Shown: one piece after another, positions 5,234 to 63,920 of the stretch
Layout of the letters: every line of letters starts with the position of its first letter
Position numbering within the stretch: the first letter of the stretch is position 1
Source: an uncultured Candidatus Rokubacteria bacterium
Lineage (GTDB): Bacteria > Methylomirabilota > Methylomirabilia > Rokubacteriales > CSP1-6
Assembly: GCA_963771355.1 (NCBI GenBank)
Contig: CAVYTA010000006.1
Coordinates: forward strand, 224,001 to 288,000
DNA: 64,000 bases
Reading direction: 5' to 3'
Position numbers and translations under genes: made by a program
The notes under the pieces: generated by a model
The model's input: only the letters and a program-made list of their open reading frames with translations
Told to the model about the DNA's origin: nothing
The model's database searches: none

Positions 5234-5761
5234 ATGCACGACACCGGCCCCGGGCGTCCCGACGCTGACGAGTGCCTGCCGTACTACTTCCAGTACATCG
5301 ACCTCGTCCCCGACGGGCACGTGCTGGAAACCCTCGAGCGTCAGATCGGCGAGAGCGCGGCGTACCTCGCCGGCTTCACGGCGGAGCAGGCGCTCCGGCG
5401 CGAGGCCCCGAAGGAGTGGAACGCCGTCGAGATCGTCGGGCACCTGGTGGACGTCGAGCGCGCCTTCGGCTACCGCGCGCTCCGCATCGCGCGCGCGGAT
5501 CCCGTCATGTGGACCCCGGTCGAGTTCGGCGACTGGGCGGCGATGGCCAACTACGAGGCGCGCCCGCTCGGCGACGTCGTGACCGAATACGCGGCGGTGC
5601 GGGCGGCGTTCGTCGCGTTCCTGCGCGGGCTGGACGCGGCCGCCTGGGCGCGCCGCGCCCCGGCGGAGTGGACGCTCCGCAGCGTGCGCGCCGTCGCCTA
5701 CGCCATGGCCGGCCACGAGCGGCATCACCTGGCGGACATCCGCCGCCAGCACCCGCGCTAG
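5234..5761 (+). CDS. DinB/YfiT family protein
   Basis: YFQYIDLV, WNAVEIVGHLVDVERAFGYRALRIAR, GHERHH. Confidence 0.85.
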   Translation: MHDTGPGRPDADECLPYYFQYIDLVPDGHVLETLERQIGESAAYLAGFTAEQALRREAPKEWNAVEIVGHLVDVERAFGYRALRIARADPVMWTPVEFGDWAAMANYEARPLGDVVTEYAAVRAAFVAFLRGLDAAAWARRAPAEWTLRSVRAVAYAMAGHERHHLADIRRQHPR

Positions 5762-5780
5762 CTGCCGTCCCTCGGTGCGC

Positions 5781-6983
5781 TCAGGCGCGCCGGTAGCGCT
5801 CCGGCACGTCGAACTTGAAGAGGCGCGCCGCGTTGAGCCCCAGCACCTTCGCCCTCGCGCCGTCCGAGAGGCCGCTCATGGTCCGCTCGATGGCCTCGGC
5901 GGAATGCGGCCACGTGCCCTCGTGATGCGGGTAGTCGTTTCCCCACATGAATGTGTCGGTCAGGTTGAAGCGCTCCGCGAGCTCGAGCCCGGCCGGGTCC
6001 TCCTGGAACGAGGCAAAGCCGTGCCGGCGGAAGTATTCGCTGGGCAGGTGCTTGAGCTTCGGTCGGACCCAGAAGTGATGCTTGCGATACGCCTCGTCCA
6101 TCGCCTCCAGCACCCACGGGAGCCAGCCGATCCCGGCCTCGATGGTGGCGAAGCGAAGCCCGGGGAAGCGCTCGAAGACCCCGGAGGCGCAGAGGTTGGC
6201 CACCGGCTCCACCGTCGGCGAGAGCGAGTGCGACACGTAGTTGATGACGGCGCCGCCGTTGCCTCGCGACGCGCGCGGGTCGCGGCCCGTCGAGATGTGG
6301 AACGTGATGGGTAGTCCCGTGTCCTGGATGGCGGCCCACAGGGGATCGAAGTGCGGCAGGTTGTAGTTCGGATGGTCGATGTCGTGCGCGCCCCAGACGG
6401 GCTTGCAGGGCAGGGTCAGTGCGCGGAAGCCCACCTTGGCCACGCGCTGCACCTCGGCGATGGAGCCCTCGAGGTCCGCGGTGGCGATGGCGGCGACGGG
6501 CGACAGCCGGTCGTTGTGCGGCCCGAAGACCTCCCACGCCCACTCGTTGAAGACGCGGCACTGCGCCTGGGCGAAGACCGCGTCCGGCGTGGCCCACATC
6601 GAGAGGCCCTTGTTCGGGAAGATCACCTCGGCGTCGATCCCGTCGCGCTCGTGATCGCGGAGCCGGTCCCATGGATCGGCGCCCGCCTGCTGACGGAGCC
6701 GGTCCTCGCCCTCCATCTCGTCCACGCGCAGCCGGTCCGGCCGGTGTCCCTCCGACACGCGCCACTTGACGCCGTTGGCGTCGGTGGTCACGCGCGGCAG
6801 GCGGTCGCGGTACTTCGCGTCGATGCGCTCCGCCCACAGGTTCGAGGGCTCGTTGGCATGGCAGTCGGCGGAGACGATGAAGTACTTGTTGGGATCGTCC
6901 GGTCGTGCGGTCCGGCTCCACCCGGCATGGCCCGGGGTTTCCAGGCGCCACCGGTTCGGGGCATTGATCTCGAGCTGGCTCAT
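5781..6983 (-). CDS. Amidohydrolase_2 family protein
   Basis: SADCHANEP, TFHI, EAGIGW, WGNDYPHHEGTWP. Confidence 0.88.
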   Translation of the reverse strand: MSQLEINAPNRWRLETPGHAGWSRTARPDDPNKYFIVSADCHANEPSNLWAERIDAKYRDRLPRVTTDANGVKWRVSEGHRPDRLRVDEMEGEDRLRQQAGADPWDRLRDHERDGIDAEVIFPNKGLSMWATPDAVFAQAQCRVFNEWAWEVFGPHNDRLSPVAAIATADLEGSIAEVQRVAKVGFRALTLPCKPVWGAHDIDHPNYNLPHFDPLWAAIQDTGLPITFHISTGRDPRASRGNGGAVINYVSHSLSPTVEPVANLCASGVFERFPGLRFATIEAGIGWLPWVLEAMDEAYRKHHFWVRPKLKHLPSEYFRRHGFASFQEDPAGLELAERFNLTDTFMWGNDYPHHEGTWPHSAEAIERTMSGLSDGARAKVLGLNAARLFKFDVPERYRRA

Positions 6984-7465
6984 CGGTCACTCCTTTGTGA
7001 GGAAACCGTCCAATGCACGAGGGTGAACGGAACCTTGGCGTCGTCGTGCGGCTCGAAGACGGCCTCGACCGGCGCGCCGATGGTCACCGCCTGGCGGGGA
7101 TCGCCGAGGAGATTGCCGAGCATGCGGATGCTGCCCGCGTGGGGCAGCTCCACCAGCACGACCAGGTAAGGGCCGTGCGCCTTGAGGGCGGGATGGACGG
7201 GATGCCAGACGCGCTCCCAGGAATAGATCGTCCCGTGCGAGGCGACCGGGGCCCAGCCGACGGCGGATGAGAGGCACGCGTGACAGATCCACTCCGGTCC
7301 CCACTGCCAGGTCTGGCACCGCTCGCAGCGCTGGACGAGGAGCTCGCCCCGCCGCGTTCCCTCCCAGTAGGGGCGGTCGAGCCCGTCCGGCTCCGGCACC
7401 GGCGCGGGCAGGCCCGCGGGCAGATAGGAGGCGGCCACCGCCATCAGTCGCTCGCCGCTCGCCAT
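6980..7465 (-). CDS. DUF35 zinc-ribbon/OB-fold protein
   Basis: PYWEG...QRCERC...ICHAC, GTIYSW, IGAPVEAVF; coupled to the thiolase-fold gene. Confidence 0.9.
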   Translation of the reverse strand: MASGERLMAVAASYLPAGLPAPVPEPDGLDRPYWEGTRRGELLVQRCERCQTWQWGPEWICHACLSSAVGWAPVASHGTIYSWERVWHPVHPALKAHGPYLVVLVELPHAGSIRMLGNLLGDPRQAVTIGAPVEAVFEPHDDAKVPFTLVHWTVSSQRSDR

Positions 7466-8646
7466 CAGAGCGTGGCCTCGCCACCCAGGATCAGGCTCGA
7501 GACCGGGGTGACCATGGGGCCCGAGATCACCATGGAGACCTCCGCGTCCGGTACCGGACTGGTCGAGTCCCCGCGGAGCTGGCGCACCGCCTCGATGACC
7601 AGCTCGAGGCCATGCATGTAGCACTCGGCGAGATTGCCGCCGCTGGTGTTGAGCGGCAGTCGCCCCGTGGGCGCGAGGAGATTGTCCACCACCAGGAAGT
7701 CATTGGCCTCGTCCGGGGTGAAGAAGCCGTGCTCCACCAGGCTCATGAGGACGCCGCCGGTGAAGTTCTCGTAGCTCTGCACCACATCCACGTCGCCGGC
7801 GGAGACCCCGGCCATCTCGTAGAGCTGCGGCGCCACCGTGGTGAAGCTCGACGTCGCGTAGAGCGGCGCGTTGTGGCCGCGCGCGGCATTGCGGTACTCC
7901 GAGCCCTGGGCGGCCCCGAGGAGATAGGCCGGCTTCGGCCGGAGGTCGCGCGCGCGCTCGGCGGAGACGACGACCACGGCGGCGGCGCCGTCGTTCTCCA
8001 TGCAGCAGTCGTAGAGCCGGAAGGGCTCCACGATCCAGCGCGCGGCATCGTACGCGTCCGCGGTGAGCGGGCGCCCGTGCATGACCGCGCGGGGATTGGC
8101 CTGGGCGTGATGGTAGGAGGCGAGCGCGATGGCGCGCTGGGCATCATGGCGGATGTCGTGGTCGTGCATGAAGCGCATCACCCGCATGGCGAAGCGCTGG
8201 GCGGGCGAGATGAGGCCATACGGGAAGGTGAGCGCCGGTTCGCCCGAGACGGTGGCAACGGGCGGCGCCGCGCCGAAGCGCTGGAACTGTCCCTGGGCGA
8301 GCGCGCGGAAGACGACGACGCAGTCGGCGATGCCGCCCGCCACCGCGGCCGCCGCATTGGCCACCGCCGCGGAGCCGCCGCCCCCGCCGCCGCCCCACTG
8401 CATGTTGGAGAAGCGCAGGGCGGGCAGACCGAGCGCGGCGGCGATGCGCGAGGGGTCGTTGCGGTCATTGCTGTACGACGCGAACCCGTCCACCTGCCGC
8501 GGATCGAGGCCGGCGTCGGCGCAGGCCTTGAGGATGGCCTCGAGCGCGAGCTTGAACTCGGAGTCCGGGGCCTGGCCGTGCTTGTAGTAGGTGGTCTCGC
8601 CGACGCCGGCGATGGCGGCCCTGCCCCGGAGCGTCCGCTCCTTCAT
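7465..8646 (-). CDS. Thiolase-fold protein (lipid-transfer/Ltp2-like)
   Basis: AIAGVGET, ANPRAVM, YDCCMENDGAAA, YENFT, NTSGGNLAECYMHG. Confidence 0.88.
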   Translation of the reverse strand: MKERTLRGRAAIAGVGETTYYKHGQAPDSEFKLALEAILKACADAGLDPRQVDGFASYSNDRNDPSRIAAALGLPALRFSNMQWGGGGGGGSAAVANAAAAVAGGIADCVVVFRALAQGQFQRFGAAPPVATVSGEPALTFPYGLISPAQRFAMRVMRFMHDHDIRHDAQRAIALASYHHAQANPRAVMHGRPLTADAYDAARWIVEPFRLYDCCMENDGAAAVVVVSAERARDLRPKPAYLLGAAQGSEYRNAARGHNAPLYATSSFTTVAPQLYEMAGVSAGDVDVVQSYENFTGGVLMSLVEHGFFTPDEANDFLVVDNLLAPTGRLPLNTSGGNLAECYMHGLELVIEAVRQLRGDSTSPVPDAEVSMVISGPMVTPVSSLILGGEATL

Positions 8647-22548: not shown

Positions 22549-22983
22549 CTAGAGCGTCTTCACAACCTCGGCCGGCCATGCCCGGGCGTCGACGCGGGCG
22601 TGCCACTCCTTGATCTTGCCGTCCCGGTCGATCACCACGCCCACGCGCTGGGCGCCCTTCTGCGGGTCCGTGTTGGCGCCGTAGGCGGTGCCGATGTTGC
22701 GGTCGGTGTCGCAGATGAGCGGGAAGTTGAAGTGGTACTTCTCGGCGAACGCCTTGTTCTCGGCAGGGGTGTCGAACGACACCCCGAGGATCACGGCGCC
22801 CTTCTTGTCGTAGTCGGCCTTGAGGTCGCGGAACCCGCAACCCTCCGCCGTTCAGCCGGGGGTGTCGGCCTTGGGGAAGAACCACAGCACGATCGCCTTG
22901 CCCTTGAAGTCCGACAGCTTCACGGGGTTGCCGTTGTGGTCGCGGCCGGTGAAGTCGGGGGCCTTGTCGCCTGCCTTCAGCAT
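22549..22983 (-). CDS. bcp: BCP/PrxQ peroxiredoxin; predicted selenoprotein (TGA=Sec at 22852-22854, U44 of 144 aa)
   Basis: GGAGG RBS; MLKAGDKAPDF...FFPKADTPG-TGA-TAEGCGFRD...ILGVSFD...; the TGA is at the peroxidatic Cys of the PxxxTxxC motif; hairpin follows. Confidence 0.92.
22822..22845 (-). promoter_or_regulatory. Candidate bacterial SECIS element (peroxiredoxin)
   Basis: GAGGGTTGCGGGTTCCGCGACCTC from +7 of the UGA; stem GTTGCG/CGCGAC plus GAG/CTC, apex GGTTC. Confidence 0.75.
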
Positions 22984-46150: not shown

Positions 46151-47002
46151 GTGGTATTGCTCGCGGCGAAGATCGTCTGCTCGGCGGGCTTCGTGCTGGC
46201 GATCACGGCGGCCATCGAGCGCCTGGGGCCGCGGCTGGGCACCCTCATCGCGATGGTGCCGCAGCTCGCGGTGCTCTCGCTGGTCTTCTTCGCCATCGAG
46301 CAGGGGTACGCCTTCGCCGCGGAGACGGCGTTCTGGAATATCCCCGGCATGTGCGCGACGGTGCCGGTCTTCGTCGGCTATCTGGTGGCGAGCCGGCTCG
46401 TGCCCGCCCCGCGCTGGGCCTCCATCACCGCCGGCGTGGCGTTCGGTACCGTCTGTTTCGTGATCCCCGCGTATCTGCTCAGCGTGATCGCGATGCCGCG
46501 CTGGGCGGTGGTGCCCCTCGCCGTCGCGGTGTGCTTCGGGACGGGGTGGATCGTGCGGCGCCTGCCGGACACCGTCCCCCTGCGGCGGGTGGCCACCGGT
46601 CCGCTGCTCCTCGCCATTCGAGCCAGCACCTCGGTGCTGACCGTGCTGGCGGTGACCGCGCTCGCCCAGCTCCTGGGTCCCAAGTGGTCCGGGCTCGTGG
46701 TCGGCTTCCCCGTCAACAGCCTGCCGGTGATGGTGATCCTGCACGTCCACTACGGCCGGGACGTGGTGAAGCCCTTCATCAAGACGTTTCCCGCGGGCGC
46801 CTTCGGGATCTGCCTCTTCGACCTGGTGGCCTGGCTCTGGCTCGAGCGGATCGGGCTCACGCTCACCGTCGTCCTCGGCTATGCGGTCGCCGTCGCCTAT
46901 CTCACCGTGGTGGGCTGGCTCCGCTACGCGGGAAGCTTGTCGCCGTCGGGGGGCGCGGGCACCTCGAACGCGTTGACCATGCCCGAGAGGAGCGCGAAGT
47001 AG
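46151..47002 (+). CDS. Hypothetical integral membrane protein with internal duplication
   Basis: Many hydrophobic helices; repeated LGPR/LGPK...P motif. Confidence 0.7.
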   Translation: MVLLAAKIVCSAGFVLAITAAIERLGPRLGTLIAMVPQLAVLSLVFFAIEQGYAFAAETAFWNIPGMCATVPVFVGYLVASRLVPAPRWASITAGVAFGTVCFVIPAYLLSVIAMPRWAVVPLAVAVCFGTGWIVRRLPDTVPLRRVATGPLLLAIRASTSVLTVLAVTALAQLLGPKWSGLVVGFPVNSLPVMVILHVHYGRDVVKPFIKTFPAGAFGICLFDLVAWLWLERIGLTLTVVLGYAVAVAYLTVVGWLRYAGSLSPSGGAGTSNALTMPERSAK

Positions 47003-47472
47003 TTCGCGGCGGCAGTCAGCTCGACCAGCCACGTGGTCCCGTAGCGCTTCTGGAGCGCGTCGAAGGCCGCCTGGTCCACGCGGTTGGTCCGCATGAGCTG
47101 GCGCGTATAGGCCACGATCTCCCGTTCTTCCGCCGGCAGGCTCGCCGGGTCGCCCTTGGCGCGGATGAGGTCGATGGCCTCTTCCCGCACCCCGGCGCGC
47201 CGCGCGGCGCCCACCTGGGCCGCCCACACATAGGCCGCCTCGCGCTCGCGCACGGCGGTGAGGATGGCGAGCGAGCGGAGCCGGCCCTCCACCACGCTCT
47301 CGTCGCGGTAGAACTTGACGAAGCTCAGCACCCGCTCCGCGAGCTTGGGGCTGTGAAGCAAGATGCTGAAGGGCCCGCGGACATTGCCGAACATCTCCAC
47401 CACGCCGTCCACCACGGGGGCGTGCTCGGGAGAAACATCCGACTTTCCGGTGATGGGGGCGACTCGGGGCAT
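46924..47472 (-). CDS. Carboxymuconolactone decarboxylase/AhpD-fold protein without Cys
   Basis: GPFSILLHSP, LAILTAVRERE AAYVW, ELTAAANYF. Confidence 0.82.
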   Translation of the reverse strand: MPRVAPITGKSDVSPEHAPVVDGVVEMFGNVRGPFSILLHSPKLAERVLSFVKFYRDESVVEGRLRSLAILTAVREREAAYVWAAQVGAARRAGVREEAIDLIRAKGDPASLPAEEREIVAYTRQLMRTNRVDQAAFDALQKRYGTTWLVELTAAANYFALLSGMVNAFEVPAPPDGDKLPA

Positions 47473-47519
47473 GGGTATACTCCTCTCGCGGCACACTCTA
47501 GCAAAAATCGGAGGTCACC

Positions 47520-48552: not shown

Positions 48553-50172
48553 CTACTTGGCCTCCTCCAGCCAGACCACCTCGAGCTGGGCGCCCTTGTC
48601 GAAGGAGTTCTTCATGCCGAAGTTTTTCACTCGCGCGCTCCACGACGACACCTGCTTGGGATACGGCGTGTAGACGTAGTACACCTGGTCGGCGGTGTAG
48701 CGCTGGATGTCGTCGATCACCTTCTTGCGCGGCGAGCGGACGGTGTAGCGGCGCTGGGCGTCCAGCATCACGTCGAGCTGGGTGTCGCTGACGTGACTGC
48801 GGTTGTCGGGCTCGCCGGTGCGGAAGAAGTTGTAGAGGTAGGCGTCCACCTCGGTGAAAAGCGAGGACGGTCCCCAGCTCGCCTCGTCGAACTTGCCGAG
48901 GAACGAGCCCCGGAGGTAGTTGCCGTACTCCTCGTTCACGATCTGAAGCTCCACGCCGATGGCCTTGAGGTAGAAGGCGAGGAGCTCTAGCTCCTCCACG
49001 TACTCGGGGCCATAGCCCGGCCAGTGCGTGCACTTCACCTTCAGGCCGTTGGGGAAGCCGGCCTCGGCCAGGAGCTTCTTGGCCAGGGCAGGGTTGTACT
49101 CGAGCCACCGCGCCCCGGGCCCCACCTGCTTGCCGGAGAGCTTCCACTCGCGCATCGGCGCGGGGATGGGGCCGTGGTCCTCGTAACCGTGACCCTCGAG
49201 GAACTGGGCCACCCATTTCTTGCGGTCCACCGCGAGGGAGAAGGCCCGGCGGACCCGCACGTCGTTGAACGGCGCCTTGTCGGTGCGGAAGGCGAGGGTG
49301 CGGACCGCGAGCCAGTCCCAGAACCGGATGGGATTGGCGCGGTTCGACTTCTGGAAGGCCGCCACCTCCGAGCGCGGGATGCGCCCGTCGTAGTAGGGGA
49401 TCTCGATTTGGCCCGCGCGAAAGAGCGAGAGCTGGGTGGCCCGGTCCTTGAGGAACAGCCACTCCACCCGGTCGAGGTAGGGCAGGCCCTTCTCGTAGTA
49501 GTCGGGGTTGCGCACGAAGGTGGCCTTCACGCCGGGCTCGTACCTGTCGAGCACGAAGGGCCCGCAGCCGATGAGCGACTCCGCCGTCTTGAAATCGCCC
49601 ATCTTCTCCTCGACCTCGCGGGGGAGGATGGCGTTCCAGGGCTCGGCGAGGTTGTGCAGGAAGGGCGCGTAGGCGTCGGCGAGGTGCACGCGCACGGTGT
49701 GGCTGTCCGGCGTCTCCACGCCCTCGATCTTGCCCAGCAGGTTGGCGTAGGCGGACTTCTTCAGCGCCCGCTCCCAGGTGTATTTCACGTCGGCGGCCAC
49801 CAGCTCGCGCCCGCTCACGGGCGCGCGCTTCTCCCAGCGGATCCCGCGCCGCAGGGTGATGGTGTAGGTCCGCCCGTCCTTGGACACCTCCGCCCTCTGG
49901 GCGATGTCGGGGGCGAGGGTGAAGTCGGAGGGCCCGTACTTGCTCCCGTTCACGTACTTGAACAGGGTGCGATGCACGAAGGACGAGATGAGCTGGGTCG
50001 GGAACGACACCGAGGCGTGGATGTCGAACGTGGGCGGCTCGAAGCCGACCTGGCGCAGCGTCCCGCCCCGTCTGGGCTGGGGGCCCTGGGCCCATGCGGG
50101 CGTCGCCGCCAGCGTGGCCGCCGCCGCGCTCGCCCGGATGAAGTCACGCCGCCGCATCGTTGCGTTCGCCAT
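48553..50172 (-). CDS. ABC transporter solute-binding protein, family 5, Tat signal
   Basis: RRRDFI, GGTLR, GCGPF, PFNDVRVRRA. Confidence 0.9.
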   Translation of the reverse strand: MANATMRRRDFIRASAAAATLAATPAWAQGPQPRRGGTLRQVGFEPPTFDIHASVSFPTQLISSFVHRTLFKYVNGSKYGPSDFTLAPDIAQRAEVSKDGRTYTITLRRGIRWEKRAPVSGRELVAADVKYTWERALKKSAYANLLGKIEGVETPDSHTVRVHLADAYAPFLHNLAEPWNAILPREVEEKMGDFKTAESLIGCGPFVLDRYEPGVKATFVRNPDYYEKGLPYLDRVEWLFLKDRATQLSLFRAGQIEIPYYDGRIPRSEVAAFQKSNRANPIRFWDWLAVRTLAFRTDKAPFNDVRVRRAFSLAVDRKKWVAQFLEGHGYEDHGPIPAPMREWKLSGKQVGPGARWLEYNPALAKKLLAEAGFPNGLKVKCTHWPGYGPEYVEELELLAFYLKAIGVELQIVNEEYGNYLRGSFLGKFDEASWGPSSLFTEVDAYLYNFFRTGEPDNRSHVSDTQLDVMLDAQRRYTVRSPRKKVIDDIQRYTADQVYYVYTPYPKQVSSWSARVKNFGMKNSFDKGAQLEVVWLEEAK

Positions 50173-50216
50173 CGGTCGCGGGGCGTAGTGTACGATACCC
50201 GGAGGAGGAGACAGCC

Positions 50217-50735
50217 ATGGCCAGGATGGAGCCGCTGGGGATCCACGAGGTCGATGACGAGATCCGCCACTTCTGCGAGGACGCCGAGCGCCAGACCGGT
50301 ACCTCCGCGAGCACCCGGACCTACGCGCGGAATCCCGCCGTGTTCAAGGCGCTCACCGCCTTTCGCGGCGCCCTGGTGCGCGAGGGCACGCTGGATCCCG
50401 TGCTCCGCGAGCTGGTGCGGATCAAGATCGCCGGACTGAACGCCTGCCGCTACTGACTCACCCTGCGCTATGCCGGGGCCCGGCATGCGGGGGCGACCGA
50501 AGCGAAGATCGCCGCGATCAACGACGAGACCTCCGACCTCCTGACCCCGCGCGAGCGGGCGGCCGTCCGCTTCGCCGAGAAGCTCGCGGTGGACCACCAG
50601 AAAGTGGACGACGCGCTCTGGGCGGAGATGCGCCAGCAGTTCACGGAAGCCGAGATCATCGAGCTGGTGGCCCACACCACGCTCTTCATCGGCTTCGGGC
50701 GCTTCAACGAGATCGTGGGGCTGGACCCGGCCTGA
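50217..50735 (+). CDS. AhpD/CMD-family peroxidase-like protein; predicted selenoprotein (TGA=Sec at 50454-50456, U80 of 172 aa)
   Basis: GGAGGAGG RBS; LRELVRIKIAGLNACRY-TGA-LTLRYAGAR...LTPRERAAVRFAEKLA...FTEAEIIELV...GFGRFN; CxxC becomes CxxU; hairpin follows. Confidence 0.9.
50461..50492 (+). promoter_or_regulatory. Candidate bacterial SECIS element (AhpD-like)
   Basis: Upper stem ATGCCG(G)/(C)CGGCAT with G-rich apex at about +20 to +24; lower stem CCCTGC/GCGGGG with a GCT bulge. Confidence 0.72.
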
Positions 50736-50737
50736 CC

Positions 50738-51496
50738 CTACTGGGCGAGCGCGCCCCCGTCGATGAGCAGCTCGGCGCCGGAGATGTAGGAGGCATCGTC
50801 GGAGGCGAGATAGAGGACCGCGCTGACGATCTCGGCCACTGTGCCCATGCGGCCCATCGGGATGCGCTGGAGCCGGCGCTCCATGGCCTCGCGGTCGCGG
50901 AAGGCGCTGTGGAACATCTCCGTGTCCACCGGTCCCGGATGCACCGAGTTGCAGCGGATCTTGTCCTTGGCGTGCTGGGCCGCCGTCACCTTGGTGAAGA
51001 TGCGGACGGCGCCCTTGCTGGCGGCGTACGCGGGCTCCTGGTGCAGCGACTGCCCCATGCCCGCGATCGACGAGATGTTCACGATGGAGCCGCCGCCGGC
51101 CCGGCGCATGGCGGGGATGGCGTGCTTGGTGCCGAGGAACACGCCCTTGGCGTTCACCGCCATCACCTGATCCCACTCGGCGGCGGTGCGCTCCTCGATG
51201 GGCACGCGCGGGATGACGATGGCGGCGTTGTTGATGAGGATATTCAGCCGTCCGTAGAGGACGATGGCCGCCTGGACGGCCTTCTGCCAGTCCGCCTCCT
51301 GGGTGACGTCGAGGTGCACATAAGTGGCGTCCCCTCCGGCCTTGCGAATGGCCGTCTCCACCTCCTGTCCCTCGGCGTCCCGGATATCGCCAAAGACCAC
51401 CTTGGCGCCTTCGCGCGCGAAGGTCTCGGCCTCCGCCGCGCCCTGACCTCGCGCGCCCCCGCTGATCAGCGCGACCTTCCCGTCCAGCTTTCCCAT
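50738..51496 (-). CDS. SDR family oxidoreductase
   Basis: SGGARGQG, NNAA, YAASK, HPGPVDT. Confidence 0.92.
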   Translation of the reverse strand: MGKLDGKVALISGGARGQGAAEAETFAREGAKVVFGDIRDAEGQEVETAIRKAGGDATYVHLDVTQEADWQKAVQAAIVLYGRLNILINNAAIVIPRVPIEERTAAEWDQVMAVNAKGVFLGTKHAIPAMRRAGGGSIVNISSIAGMGQSLHQEPAYAASKGAVRIFTKVTAAQHAKDKIRCNSVHPGPVDTEMFHSAFRDREAMERRLQRIPMGRMGTVAEIVSAVLYLASDDASYISGAELLIDGGALAQ

Positions 51497-58236: not shown

Positions 58237-58860
58237 CTACTCGGCGTCGCCCTCGGCCTTGACCTTGGTCACGAGCTGCTCGAGCGCCTCGTAGGGTTGC
58301 GCGCCCACGACGCCGCGGCGGCCGACCACGAAGGTCGGCACGCCCGTGATTCCGTACTCGCGGGAGAGCTTCCAGTCCGCGTCGACGGCGGCCTTGTAGG
58401 TCCGCTTCTCGAGCACTTCGCGGGCGGCGTCGATCGGCAGGCCCACCGACTGCGCGATCTCGAGGAGCACGGCGGGCTGGGAGATGTCCCGCGCCTCGAC
58501 GAAGTAGGCCCGGAACATCGCGTCGTGGAAGGCCTCGCCGCCGGGCTGGGTGTCCGCCCACTTACCCAGCTCCTGGGAGAGCCGGCTATTGTAGGTGTGG
58601 GTGCGCTCGCCATACGGCAGCCCTTCAGCGTCCATGCGCGCCTTCATCTGGGCATGCATGGCCTTGATATCCAGCCCGCGCCCGGCGAAGAGATCGGCCA
58701 GGGCCAACCCTTCCGCCGGCGTTTCCGGGTGCAGGGGAAAGTGCACCCACTCGACCTTCACCCCGTGCTCTTTCTTCAGCCTCTCAATACGCCCGGTACT
58801 GAGATAGCACCACGGTCAGACATAGTCGGAGAAGATCTGCATCGTCACGGGCTCGGGCAT
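58237..58860 (-). CDS. FrnE/DsbA-like thiol-disulfide oxidoreductase; predicted selenoprotein (TGA=Sec at 58816-58818, U15 of 207 aa)
   Basis: AGGAGG RBS; MPEPVTMQIFSDYV-TGA-PWCYLSTGRIERL...FPLHPETP...GITGVPTF; CPWC becomes UPWC; hairpin follows. Confidence 0.92.
58782..58804 (-). promoter_or_regulatory. Candidate bacterial SECIS element (DsbA-like)
   Basis: 9-bp stem TCTCAGTAC/GTATTGAGA (one G-U pair), loop CGGGC at +21 to +25 from the UGA. Confidence 0.75.
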
Positions 58861-62197: not shown

Positions 62198-63150
62198 CAG
62201 GCCCTCCCCGGCTTCCGCGCCTCGAAGATGGCCCGCGGGTTGCGCACGAGCATCTGCTCGATCTGATCATCGGGAACGCCCGCCTTGCGGAGGGCGGGGA
62301 GGATGTCGTCGGAGATGTGGTTGTAGTGCCAGAGGGGCCGGGTCCGGCGCTTGGCGTCCTCGGAGAGCATGTCCGACCAGCAGTTGGCGTCGTGGGAGAG
62401 GACCATCTTGCCCGCATAGCCCTCGGCGCAAAGCTTCGCCAGCACCTCGACCCGCTTCGCGGTGGGCAGGTATTGCTCGAGTCCAAAGCGGTCCATGCCG
62501 ATGGTGCTGCCCCGCTCCATGAGCCCGCGCAGATAGCCCAGGTCCTCGCTGTCGCCGCTGTGGCCGATGATGACGCGGCTCAGGTCGACGCCCTCCTGAG
62601 CGAAGATCGCCTGCTGCGCCTCCCCGGAGCGGCCCGCGGCCCAGGTGTGGGTGGAGATCGGTACGCCGGTCGCTTTCTGGGCCCGCGCGGAGGCGCGCAG
62701 CACGTTCTCGATCACCGGCGTCACGCCGGCGGTGTCGGTGGCGCACTTGATGATGGCGGCCTTGACGCCGCTGGCGCCGATGCCCTGGGTGATGTCGCGG
62801 ATGAAGAGCGCGGCGACCTCGTCCACGCCATGGGCGGTGAAGTAGCGCTGGGGCATCCACCAGACGCCGGTGGCCACGATCACGCGGACCGGCGAGCGCT
62901 TGGCCACCGCGGCGATCAGGTCGATGTCCCGCCCCAGGTCCACCGTGGTCAGGTCCACGATGGTGCGGATGCCACGCTTGTGCAGATCGGCCATCTTCCG
63001 CTCGGCGATGTCGAGGATGCCGCCCCGGTCCCAGAGATGCGGCCAGTTCTCCTGGACGCCGGGAGAGCGCGTGACGATGTGCTCGTGCATCAGGGTCGGG
63101 CCCAGCTCCGCCGTGGCCACCGGGCCGAGCGCAGTATCTACCGTGTTCAT
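62197..63150 (-). CDS. Phosphotriesterase-family lactonase
   Basis: TLMHEH, IIKCAT (carboxylated Lys), STHT, IGH, LSHD. Confidence 0.9.
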   Translation of the reverse strand: MNTVDTALGPVATAELGPTLMHEHIVTRSPGVQENWPHLWDRGGILDIAERKMADLHKRGIRTIVDLTTVDLGRDIDLIAAVAKRSPVRVIVATGVWWMPQRYFTAHGVDEVAALFIRDITQGIGASGVKAAIIKCATDTAGVTPVIENVLRASARAQKATGVPISTHTWAAGRSGEAQQAIFAQEGVDLSRVIIGHSGDSEDLGYLRGLMERGSTIGMDRFGLEQYLPTAKRVEVLAKLCAEGYAGKMVLSHDANCWSDMLSEDAKRRTRPLWHYNHISDDILPALRKAGVPDDQIEQMLVRNPRAIFEARKPGRA

Positions 63151-63920
63151 CGCGTGAAGACCTCCAGGACGGGTTTATCATCGCGCAGCGAGGCGAGCAG
63201 CACCGAGTGGATGGCCGGCTCCCGGAGCAGGCGCTCGGCGGTCTCGCGCGCCGGCGTTCGATCCGGGAGGCTCTCCACCTTGTTGATGAGGACCACGACC
63301 CGGGCGCCGGGCGGCACGCCCTTGCGGCCGCCCTCGGGATGGGCCATGACGCGGGCGACGATCTCGGGGGTGATCGATGCCCCCAGCGGCGCGCCGCCAA
63401 GCGCGGCGACCAACTCGGGGCGGTGCACGTGGTCGTCGTCGAGCGGCTTGCCGAAGACGTCGGCGCCCACGACGGGAATCACCAGTGTCGTCTCCGGCGG
63501 GATCACCGGCTCGTGCGCGGCCGGCGCCTTGAAAGGCCGCGTGCGCGAGCCATCCGCCTCGTTGAGGATGCACGCGTCGGAGAACCAGCTGCACAGCGCG
63601 CTGAAGAGCTCGAGCGAGACGCCGCCGGCACGATTGGTGGCCGGGTCAGTTGGTCCCACCACGAGCACGTGCCGGTGAGCGGCCAGCGCCGCCGCGACGC
63701 GGTCCCGCGTGGCCTCGGCCGCGAGGACTCGCGCGGGCGCACGTGCGGCCTGCGCGCCGAAGATATGGGTGGTGGTGGTCGTGATGACGCACCCACCTGT
63801 CTCCGTCACCTCGCGCGCCAGACGAAACATGGCCGTGCTCTTGCCGCCCCCACCGACCAGGGCGACGACCTCGCCGGGCTTCACAACTAGGGCGTCAACC
63901 AGACGACGTGCTGCGGTCAC
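63147..63920 (-). CDS. yqeC: YqeC-like selenium cofactor biosynthesis/accessory protein
   Basis: VALVGGGGKST, ITTTTTHI, NEADGSRTRPFKAPAAHEPVIP, VIPVVG, HRPE, LINK are motifs characteristic of YqeC. Confidence 0.85.
   Translation of the reverse strand: MTAARRLVDALVVKPGEVVALVGGGGKSTAMFRLAREVTETGGCVITTTTTHIFGAQAARAPARVLAAEATRDRVAAALAAHRHVLVVGPTDPATNRAGGVSLELFSALCSWFSDACILNEADGSRTRPFKAPAAHEPVIPPETTLVIPVVGADVFGKPLDDDHVHRPELVAALGGAPLGASITPEIVARVMAHPEGGRKGVPPGARVVVLINKVESLPDRTPARETAERLLREPAIHSVLLASLRDDKPVLEVFTR

Follow-up and report, generated by a model that had tools for sequence, protein, structure and literature searches.

An AhpD-like gene of Rokubacteria with an in-frame TGA, most likely read as selenocysteine, and an arginine at the relay-histidine position

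The window, that is, the whole 64-kb stretch of DNA analysed here, from an uncultured Candidatus Rokubacteria bacterium, carries one intact AhpD-like (CMD-family) selenoprotein gene with a TGA lying within a C-R-Y-U motif. Direct reading of the DNA bears out the layout put forward in an earlier, sequence-only reading, namely a ribosome-binding site, 79 codons that end in NACRY, a TGA at codon 80 and 92 further codons (LTLRYAGARHAG...LTPRERAAVRFAEKL...FTEAEIIEL...RFN...) that lead to a terminal TGA at 50733–50735. The gene comprises the following features:

50201–50210, + strand: Shine–Dalgarno-like GGAGGAGGAG, read directly from the sequence, 6 nt upstream of the ATG at 50217
50217–50735, + strand: coding sequence of the AhpD-like/CMD selenoprotein, 172 residues including U80, followed by the terminal TGA
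50409–50411, + strand: Glu65 codon, equivalent by alignment to Glu36 of PA0269 and Glu118 of Mycobacterium tuberculosis AhpD (MtAhpD) in the arrangement E-x11-C
50445–50447, + strand: Cys77 codon (TGC), first residue of CxxU and presumed resolving Cys; TGC or TGT in 46 of 46 sequences
50454–50456, + strand: in-frame TGA, codon 80, most likely read as selenocysteine; TGA in 46 of 46 sequences, Cys in the Cys homologues
50466–50468, + strand: Arg84 codon CGC at the canonical relay-His position, which doubles as the 5′ side of the lower stem (3 bp) of the hairpin described below

Both stop-to-stop halves of the gene lie in the same frame and are coding-like, with GC3 values of 0.85 and 0.94 in a window of 70% G+C. 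The Pfam CMD domain (PF02627) is matched over residues 40–121 (69.4 bits against a cut-off of 23) and spans TGA80; together with the conservation of the TGA, this supports the proposal of a single AhpD/CMD-family gene with a CxxU motif. When the curated cut-offs of NCBIfam are applied, the window protein passes the generic AhpD family core domain, TIGR00778 (33.0 bits against 27.8), and no other model. Scores fall short for TIGR01926 (61.8 bits against 81.8) and for the (seleno)protein models of the AhpD superfamily, NF053654 (79.7 against 310), NF041047 (28.1 against 110) and NF041238 (19.2 against 175). NF053654, a YciW-related (seleno)protein model, is the best-scoring NCBIfam model both for the window protein and for the Cys-containing Arg-type members described below, and its score makes the window protein a relative rather than a member of that family. 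A scan of 49900–51000 for promoters and terminators found none. The gene is flanked by genes on the opposite strand, encoding an SBP_bac_5 protein upstream and a short-chain dehydrogenase downstream.

A scan of species-representative genomes with the patterns GI[HND]EVD[DE]E and FAEKLAVD, which biases the sample to sequences bearing those motifs, returned 55 loci. Loci L001–L046 are orthologues of the window gene (75–95% identity); without the partial L042 they give 45 full-length loci, and 46 sequences when the window is included. Rokubacteria/Rokuibacteriota or Methylomirabilota are named in 37 of the 46 titles of L001–L046 (partial L042 counted), and the remaining nine, which name other taxa or none, are likely binning noise. 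The ATG start, the Cys77 codon and TGA80 are kept in all 46 sequences, and the partial L042 also has a TGA in the codon-80 column. The same column holds a TGA in two distant sequences of 40–43% identity, L048 from a Deltaproteobacteria metagenome-assembled genome (MAG; 43% identity to the window protein) and L049 from a Pseudomonadales MAG. Purifying selection is equal on the two sides of the TGA, with a mean dN/dS of 0.20 over codons 1–79 against 0.19 over codons 92–170 (44 sequences). L045 and L046 (2 of the 45 loci) were excluded from this set for loss of the frame in the C-terminal half, which sets in past about residue 128 in L045 and past about residue 107 in L046 and may reflect assembly error or decay.

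These observations bear directly on one objection, that TGA80 is a true stop and the locus a pseudogene or two small separate genes. The downstream frameshifts of L045 and L046 speak for it, as does the output of gene callers: among 102 protein-database matches, 28 stop exactly at C[RH][YF] and 22 begin just past column 80. Against it stand the TGA fixed in 46 of 46 sequences, the matching selection on both sides, and the Pfam domain and the confidently predicted single-domain fold, both of which cross TGA80. Moreover, in the window no ATG, GTG or TTG occurs in frame past TGA80 before 50589, and the C-terminal half therefore could not be made alone. Nor is any start codon past TGA80 conserved among the 44 orthologous sequences, codon 83 being GTG in just 10 of them. 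A true stop is thus scarcely credible, and the database halves are annotation artefacts. Two database relatives, P0005 and P0006, are 145-residue entries that lack 28 residues around the Sec column, as if the stop had been spliced out.

Downstream of TGA80, the RNA folds into a hairpin with two parts:

50466–50489, + strand: conserved core of 3 bp, a bulged U at 50469, 7 bp and the loop GGC at 50477–50479; MFE −14.3 kcal/mol
50461–50493, + strand: full two-part hairpin as folded, its outer 4 bp specific to the window variant

The inner stem pairs 50470–50476 with 50480–50486, the lower 3 bp pair 50466–50468 with 50487–50489, and the outer 4 bp pair 50461–50464 with 50490–50493. The two-part hairpin seen in the sequence-only reading is indeed present and its inner part is conserved, but its outer part is not: the four outer pairs are kept in 27, 17, 11 and 41 of 41 sequences, and conservation is confined to the inner stem and the adjoining 2–3 bp. 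Compared with shuffled sequences, the hairpin has z values of −1.5 (73 nt), −2.2 (24-nt core) and −1.8 (33 nt, 50461–50493), none of them significant. Because this single-sequence signal is weak, the evidence for the hairpin is taken from comparison with relatives. Not one base of codons 85–90 (TAT GCC GGG GCC CGG CAT) varies among the 44 sequences, whereas synonymous variants occur in 81 of the 93 other codons whose residue is conserved; the Arg84 codon, which precedes them, is CGC in 43 of 44 sequences and CGA in one. Over codons 81–91, dS falls to 0.154, against 0.52–0.61 outside the hairpin, and the 7-bp stem is paired in all 41 sequences. The stem is invariant within the 39 distinct orthologue sequences, so all of its covariation rests on the two distant ones: L048 and L049 each form a 7–8-bp stem that is again capped by GGC and keeps the register, and in which six of the seven stem pairs differ in their letters and pairing is intact through compensatory changes. 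The stretch YAGARH (residues 85–90) is under two constraints at once, one on the protein and one on the SECIS stem. The criteria for bacterial SECIS elements, as given in the available part of a 2026 review (PMC13188914), are a loop of 3–9 nt, a stem of 4–16 bp, a G in loop positions 1–2, a distance of 16–37 nt from the UGA and an MFE of at most −7.5 kcal/mol. The window hairpin falls within all of these values, with a GGC loop, a 7-bp stem, a distance of 20 nt from the UGA and −14.3 kcal/mol.

The window contains two further genes with an in-frame TGA at a classic Sec position (TPGU and UPWC), each accompanied by a hairpin with a G in loop positions 1–2:

22549–22983, − strand: Sec-BCP peroxiredoxin, TPGU, TGA at 22852–22854; candidate partner, unlinked to the AhpD-like gene
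58237–58860, − strand: DsbA-like protein (Pfam DSBA), FSDYV-U-PWC, with TGA at 58816–58818 in place of the first active-site Cys

The Sec-BCP (Pfam AhpC-TSA, 1.4e-38) has its Sec at the peroxidatic position, in FFPKADTPGUTAEGCGF, and is followed 17 nt past the UGA by a 9-bp hairpin with a GUU loop. In the DsbA-like gene, the Pfam DSBA match covers the part past the TGA, and the hairpin (loop CGGGC) lies 20 nt from the UGA. A P450 gene (58931–60244, − strand) adjoins the DsbA-like gene and is 79% identical to the P450 found beside the Sec-AhpD-like gene in L019; another P450 adjoins that gene in L034. At about 43148 (+ strand), an in-frame TGA lies in a Cys-rich, coding-like frame (CTLDDGTCGVCTUPEGCCCC), which may be due to chance in G+C-rich DNA. 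The gene at 63150–63920 (− strand) encodes a protein (PF19842, 1.9e-40) of the YqeC family, which marks the selenium-dependent molybdenum hydroxylase trait. Neither tRNA nor tRNA-Sec was found in the 64-kb window with ARAGORN, nor were selA, selB or selD, and Rfam gave no match in the window at its gathering thresholds. The two additional candidate selenoprotein genes argue indirectly for a Sec trait in the host genome.

This distribution of evidence allows a second objection to be weighed, according to which UGA80 is decoded, but as Trp, Cys or Arg, through a genome-wide reassignment or near-cognate read-through. Besides the Sec machinery missing from the 64-kb window, it can draw on the residue-80 column of the 102 database matches, which holds W in three entries and R in two. 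However, TGA terminates this very gene and many other coding-like open reading frames of the window, the hairpin downstream of TGA80 is conserved and fits the SECIS criteria available from PMC13188914, and the two other genes carry their TGA at TPGU and UPWC. In homologues, moreover, column 80 is a redox Cys: no close relative among the 102 matches has Cys there, and more distant homologues, such as loci L050–L053, do. Decoding as another amino acid is accordingly judged highly improbable, and TGA80 is decoded most likely as selenocysteine, as far as comparison of sequences can tell. The sequence-only reading had itself singled out two findings that would tell against it, a non-Cys residue in this column of the homologues and halves existing as separate proteins; the Cys homologues carry Cys, and the halves found in databases are the artefacts described above. 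At the Sec column, the database relatives P0008 and P0009 read Arg (CRYR). In P0131 and P0236, two Arg-type representatives, the second-Cys column holds W, which may be a TGA misread as Trp.

An AlphaFold model of the protein, built with 67 aligned sequences, has a pLDDT of 96.4. Its best matches in the protein data bank are the AhpD-core structures 2prr, 3c1l, 2oyo and 6k40 and PA0269 (TM 0.7–0.83), and the debrominase Bmp8 (6ohi/6ohj) superposes with a TM of 0.85 normalised to the query at 18–19% identity. Similarity with the two-domain M. tuberculosis AhpD (1knc, 1gu9) is poor (TM 0.47–0.49). The helix that follows CxxU is broken at residues 82–85 in the model. In the alignment with PA0269 (2o4d/2ijc), C-A-Y-C-V-N-M-H lies over C-R-Y-U-L-T-L-R. 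This alignment, combined with the residue correspondences in the available text of PMC3141380, gives the following active-site mapping:

E65: Glu36 of PA0269, Glu118 of MtAhpD
C77: Cys48 of PA0269, Cys130 of MtAhpD
Y79: Tyr50 of PA0269, His132 of MtAhpD
U80: Cys51 of PA0269, Cys133 of MtAhpD
R84: His55 of PA0269, His137 of MtAhpD

Of the five relay positions mapped in this way from PMC3141380, four are retained, with Sec standing for Cys at one of these, and Arg takes the place of the fifth, the relay His. The relay Glu that the source places 12 residues ahead of the first Cys is E65, invariant in 67 sequences; of the Cys-x-x-Cys, C77 is kept and the second Cys is a TGA, so that the motif is complete if Sec is taken as the Cys analogue. 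The His expected at +4 from the second Cys is absent, its column being occupied by R84. This confirms the Arg in place of the canonical His that had been noticed in the sequence-only reading, and it contrasts with the statement, in the available text of PMC3141380, that the relay His is invariant and essential in the AhpD-like family. Because this His is missing, the protein is classed here within the CMD superfamily as AhpD-like and Arg-type, rather than as an AhpD. The C termini of the distant relatives L048–L052 contain a conserved Cys (AACEIY, KFCPTD, AACPI, ASCPI and PSCELP), which the window protein does not have.

It had been suggested that the low pKa of Sec removes the need for the His, in which case Arg84 would be a consequence of Sec. 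R84 does occupy the position of the His (mapping of PMC3141380, available text), and every Sec form found here has Arg at +4. The Cys relatives, however, share the Arg. The Cys loci L050–L053 read CVLCKSVR, CVLCKSVR, CKACKSAR and CQPCQLAR, each with Arg at +4. When 1.84 billion representatives were searched with a profile, 10,205 matches were obtained at E ≤ 0.001; the 150 best proteins contribute 187 domain rows, of which 112 have C..C...R and 4 have C..C...H. The search profile was built from Arg-bearing sequences and so favours Arg-type matches, but the sheer number of the latter nonetheless stands. A quick tree of 76 rows, computed by maximum likelihood, contains a branch with 98% SH-aLRT support that divides 14 rows, either His-type or without the motif, from 62 that are nearly all Arg-type. 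On the Arg-type side, the Sec forms are nested among Cys forms: the Rokubacteria Sec group is one clade (100%), and L048 and the Cys protein P0105 are sisters (97%). The five best relatives in the protein data bank are all His-type and all Cys-type. Arg at +4 is thus the rule in Cys relatives as well. An exchange of the His for Sec is unsupported, because the Cys relatives share the Arg and the Arg clade predates Sec, and a causal role of Sec in the loss of the His must be regarded as very unlikely. As judged from these sequence comparisons, Arg84 instead characterises a large clade, CxxCxxxR, most of whose members contain Cys, and is older than and independent of the use of Sec. The Cys members of this clade that were run against NCBIfam pass no model cut-off.

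The earlier reading also proposed that the protein could recycle the Sec-BCP. These genes are separated by 27 kb in the window, where they occupy opposite strands, and neither here nor at any of the 45 orthologue loci does a BCP or other peroxiredoxin gene occur within about 6 kb of the Sec-AhpD-like gene. In the distant L048, by contrast, the Sec-BCP begins 37 nt past the Sec-AhpD-like gene, which hints at such a link and gives this part of the proposal weak support. The L048 segment at 5343–7953 (+ strand) encodes a nitroreductase, the Sec-AhpD-like protein (5989–6489), the Sec-BCP (6527–7003, TGA at 6656–6658) and a luciferase-like monooxygenase, and this Deltaproteobacteria MAG therefore has two adjacent selenoprotein genes. 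Clustering of this kind is noted in the accessible parts of PMC2398784 and PMC13188914, with one read carrying adjacent Prx-like and AhpD-like selenoprotein genes. We tentatively regard a BCP-type peroxiredoxin as the best single guess for the physiological partner. A second CMD-family gene of the window (46927–47496, − strand) was dropped as a partner, having no Cys motif. It scores 22.1 against the Pfam cut-off of 23 and recurs within 12 kb of the Sec-AhpD-like gene in 13 loci.

Gene neighbourhoods vary among the orthologue loci, the synteny of which gives no functional clue, and the neighbours found in the window (SBP_bac_5, short-chain dehydrogenase and aldo-keto reductase) are common to L001 and L002 only. 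Genes for the large subunit of a Mo-hydroxylase, a ThiS/MoaD-like protein and the Sec-AhpD-like protein follow one another in this order on one strand in 15 of the 45 loci (L003, L005, L007–L009, L012, L014, L016, L018, L023, L026, L035, L037, L043 and L046). A type I phosphodiesterase gene comes directly after the Sec-AhpD-like gene in 14 of these 15 and about 1.5 kb further in L035. Four more loci have the ThiS-like and Mo-hydroxylase genes only, 2.4–6.5 kb off and on the other strand. The other 26 loci lack the block, and none of its genes was found in the window.

An alternative role for the selenoprotein would be that of a stand-alone weak peroxidase, or of a reductase for a substrate other than a peroxiredoxin, tied either to the Mo-hydroxylase/ThiS-like/phosphodiesterase block or to reductive chemistry like that of Bmp8. 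The position of the gene between the ThiS-like and phosphodiesterase genes in a third of the loci and the TM of Bmp8 to the model both point this way, as do the want of a Prx neighbour in the window and the weak H2O2-reducing activity that PA0269 shows on its own (PMC3141380, available text). On the other side, the block is missing from the window and from most loci and is partial in four, L048 pairs the family with a Sec-BCP, and the Bmp8 fold match is not tied to Bmp8 chemistry. With evidence on both sides, we hold such a role to be a serious contender, somewhat short of an even chance.

The literature has included AhpD-like CxxU selenoproteins since 2005. Among Sargasso Sea sequences, Zhang, Fomenko and Gladyshev (2005, PMC1088965) counted 27 AhpD-like (CxxU) and 4 CMD-domain (CxxU) selenoprotein sequences; AhpD-like 1 and AhpD-like 2 selenoproteins were described from the GOS data (Zhang and Gladyshev 2008, PMC2398784), and several AhpD-related families are catalogued in the 2026 review (PMC13188914), each as given in the part of the source available. 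The window protein resembles these metagenomic proteins in its fold family, in having Sec second in CxxU and in a SECIS just past the UGA. It differs from them in that its group comes mostly from Rokubacteria/Methylomirabilota MAGs and passes no family-level NCBIfam cut-off. With PA0269 and the AhpD-core proteins (2o4d/2ijc/7xw1, 2prr, 3c1l, 2oyo and 6k40), which are its best sequence and fold matches, it shares the Glu, the first Cys and the Tyr; it departs from them in that the second Cys is Sec and the relay His is Arg84 (mapping of PMC3141380, available text), and also in the break that the model shows in the helix past CxxU. The active-site spacing E-x11-C-x2-C-x3 and the presumed function as a reductant of peroxiredoxin are those of MtAhpD. 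Unlike MtAhpD (His137, His132), the window gene has no adjacent ahpC and no known lipoamide partner. With Bmp8 it shares the fold, and nothing in the window protein suggests halogenated substrates. A literature search on selenoproteins of Rokubacteria and Methylomirabilota found no paper describing this protein. The window gene is accordingly of a known kind, and its orthologue group has been missed by curated models.

Given the structure of the gene, the conservation of its TGA, the RNA hairpin, the fold of the AlphaFold model and the active-site mapping, all established above, the locus is very probably an intact gene for a 172-residue AhpD-like (CMD-family) thiol/selenol oxidoreductase of the Arg type, with the active site C77-R-Y-U80 and a UGA decoded by means of a SECIS. 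The hairpin 20 nt past the UGA would recruit SelB and Sec-tRNA and so cause the UGA to be read as Sec, giving a protein predicted to be all-helical, with selenocysteine U80 as its second active-site Cys. The nucleophile of M. tuberculosis AhpD is the second Cys of CxxC. The oxidised partner attacked by U80 would be a peroxide, a disulfide or the sulfenate or selenenate of a peroxiredoxin. Resolution of the adduct by C77 would yield an intramolecular selenenylsulfide, and a reductant would reopen the C77–U80 bond. Glu65 and Tyr79 of the published AhpD relay are retained, with Arg84 replacing the relay His.

On a broader and decidedly more tentative level, CxxC/U-xxx-R may represent a large, unnamed branch of the AhpD superfamily in which the Arg, instead of the supposedly invariant His, tunes the reactive (seleno)Cys, which works with BCP-type peroxiredoxins and which has recruited Sec more than once. 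The L048 operon is the basis for the link with BCP, and the repeated recruitment, as a part of this joint proposal equally tentative, would be represented by the Rokubacteria group and by L048 and L049 beside their Cys sisters.

Gene callers split or misread this gene (28 N-terminal halves, 22 C-terminal halves and three W readings among the 102 matches), so that reading it correctly supplies the annotation of this lineage with a full-length redox enzyme. A Methylomirabilota MAG with 63 predicted selenoprotein genes is cited in the available part of the 2026 review (PMC13188914), where the lineage is reported as very rich in selenoproteins. The more useful result is a negative one, namely that the missing His is no adaptation to selenium. 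Among the curated models and solved structures examined, none represents the Arg-type clade. This clade has natural Cys and Sec versions of one active site, which would make it a clean system for finding out what Sec adds to CxxC.
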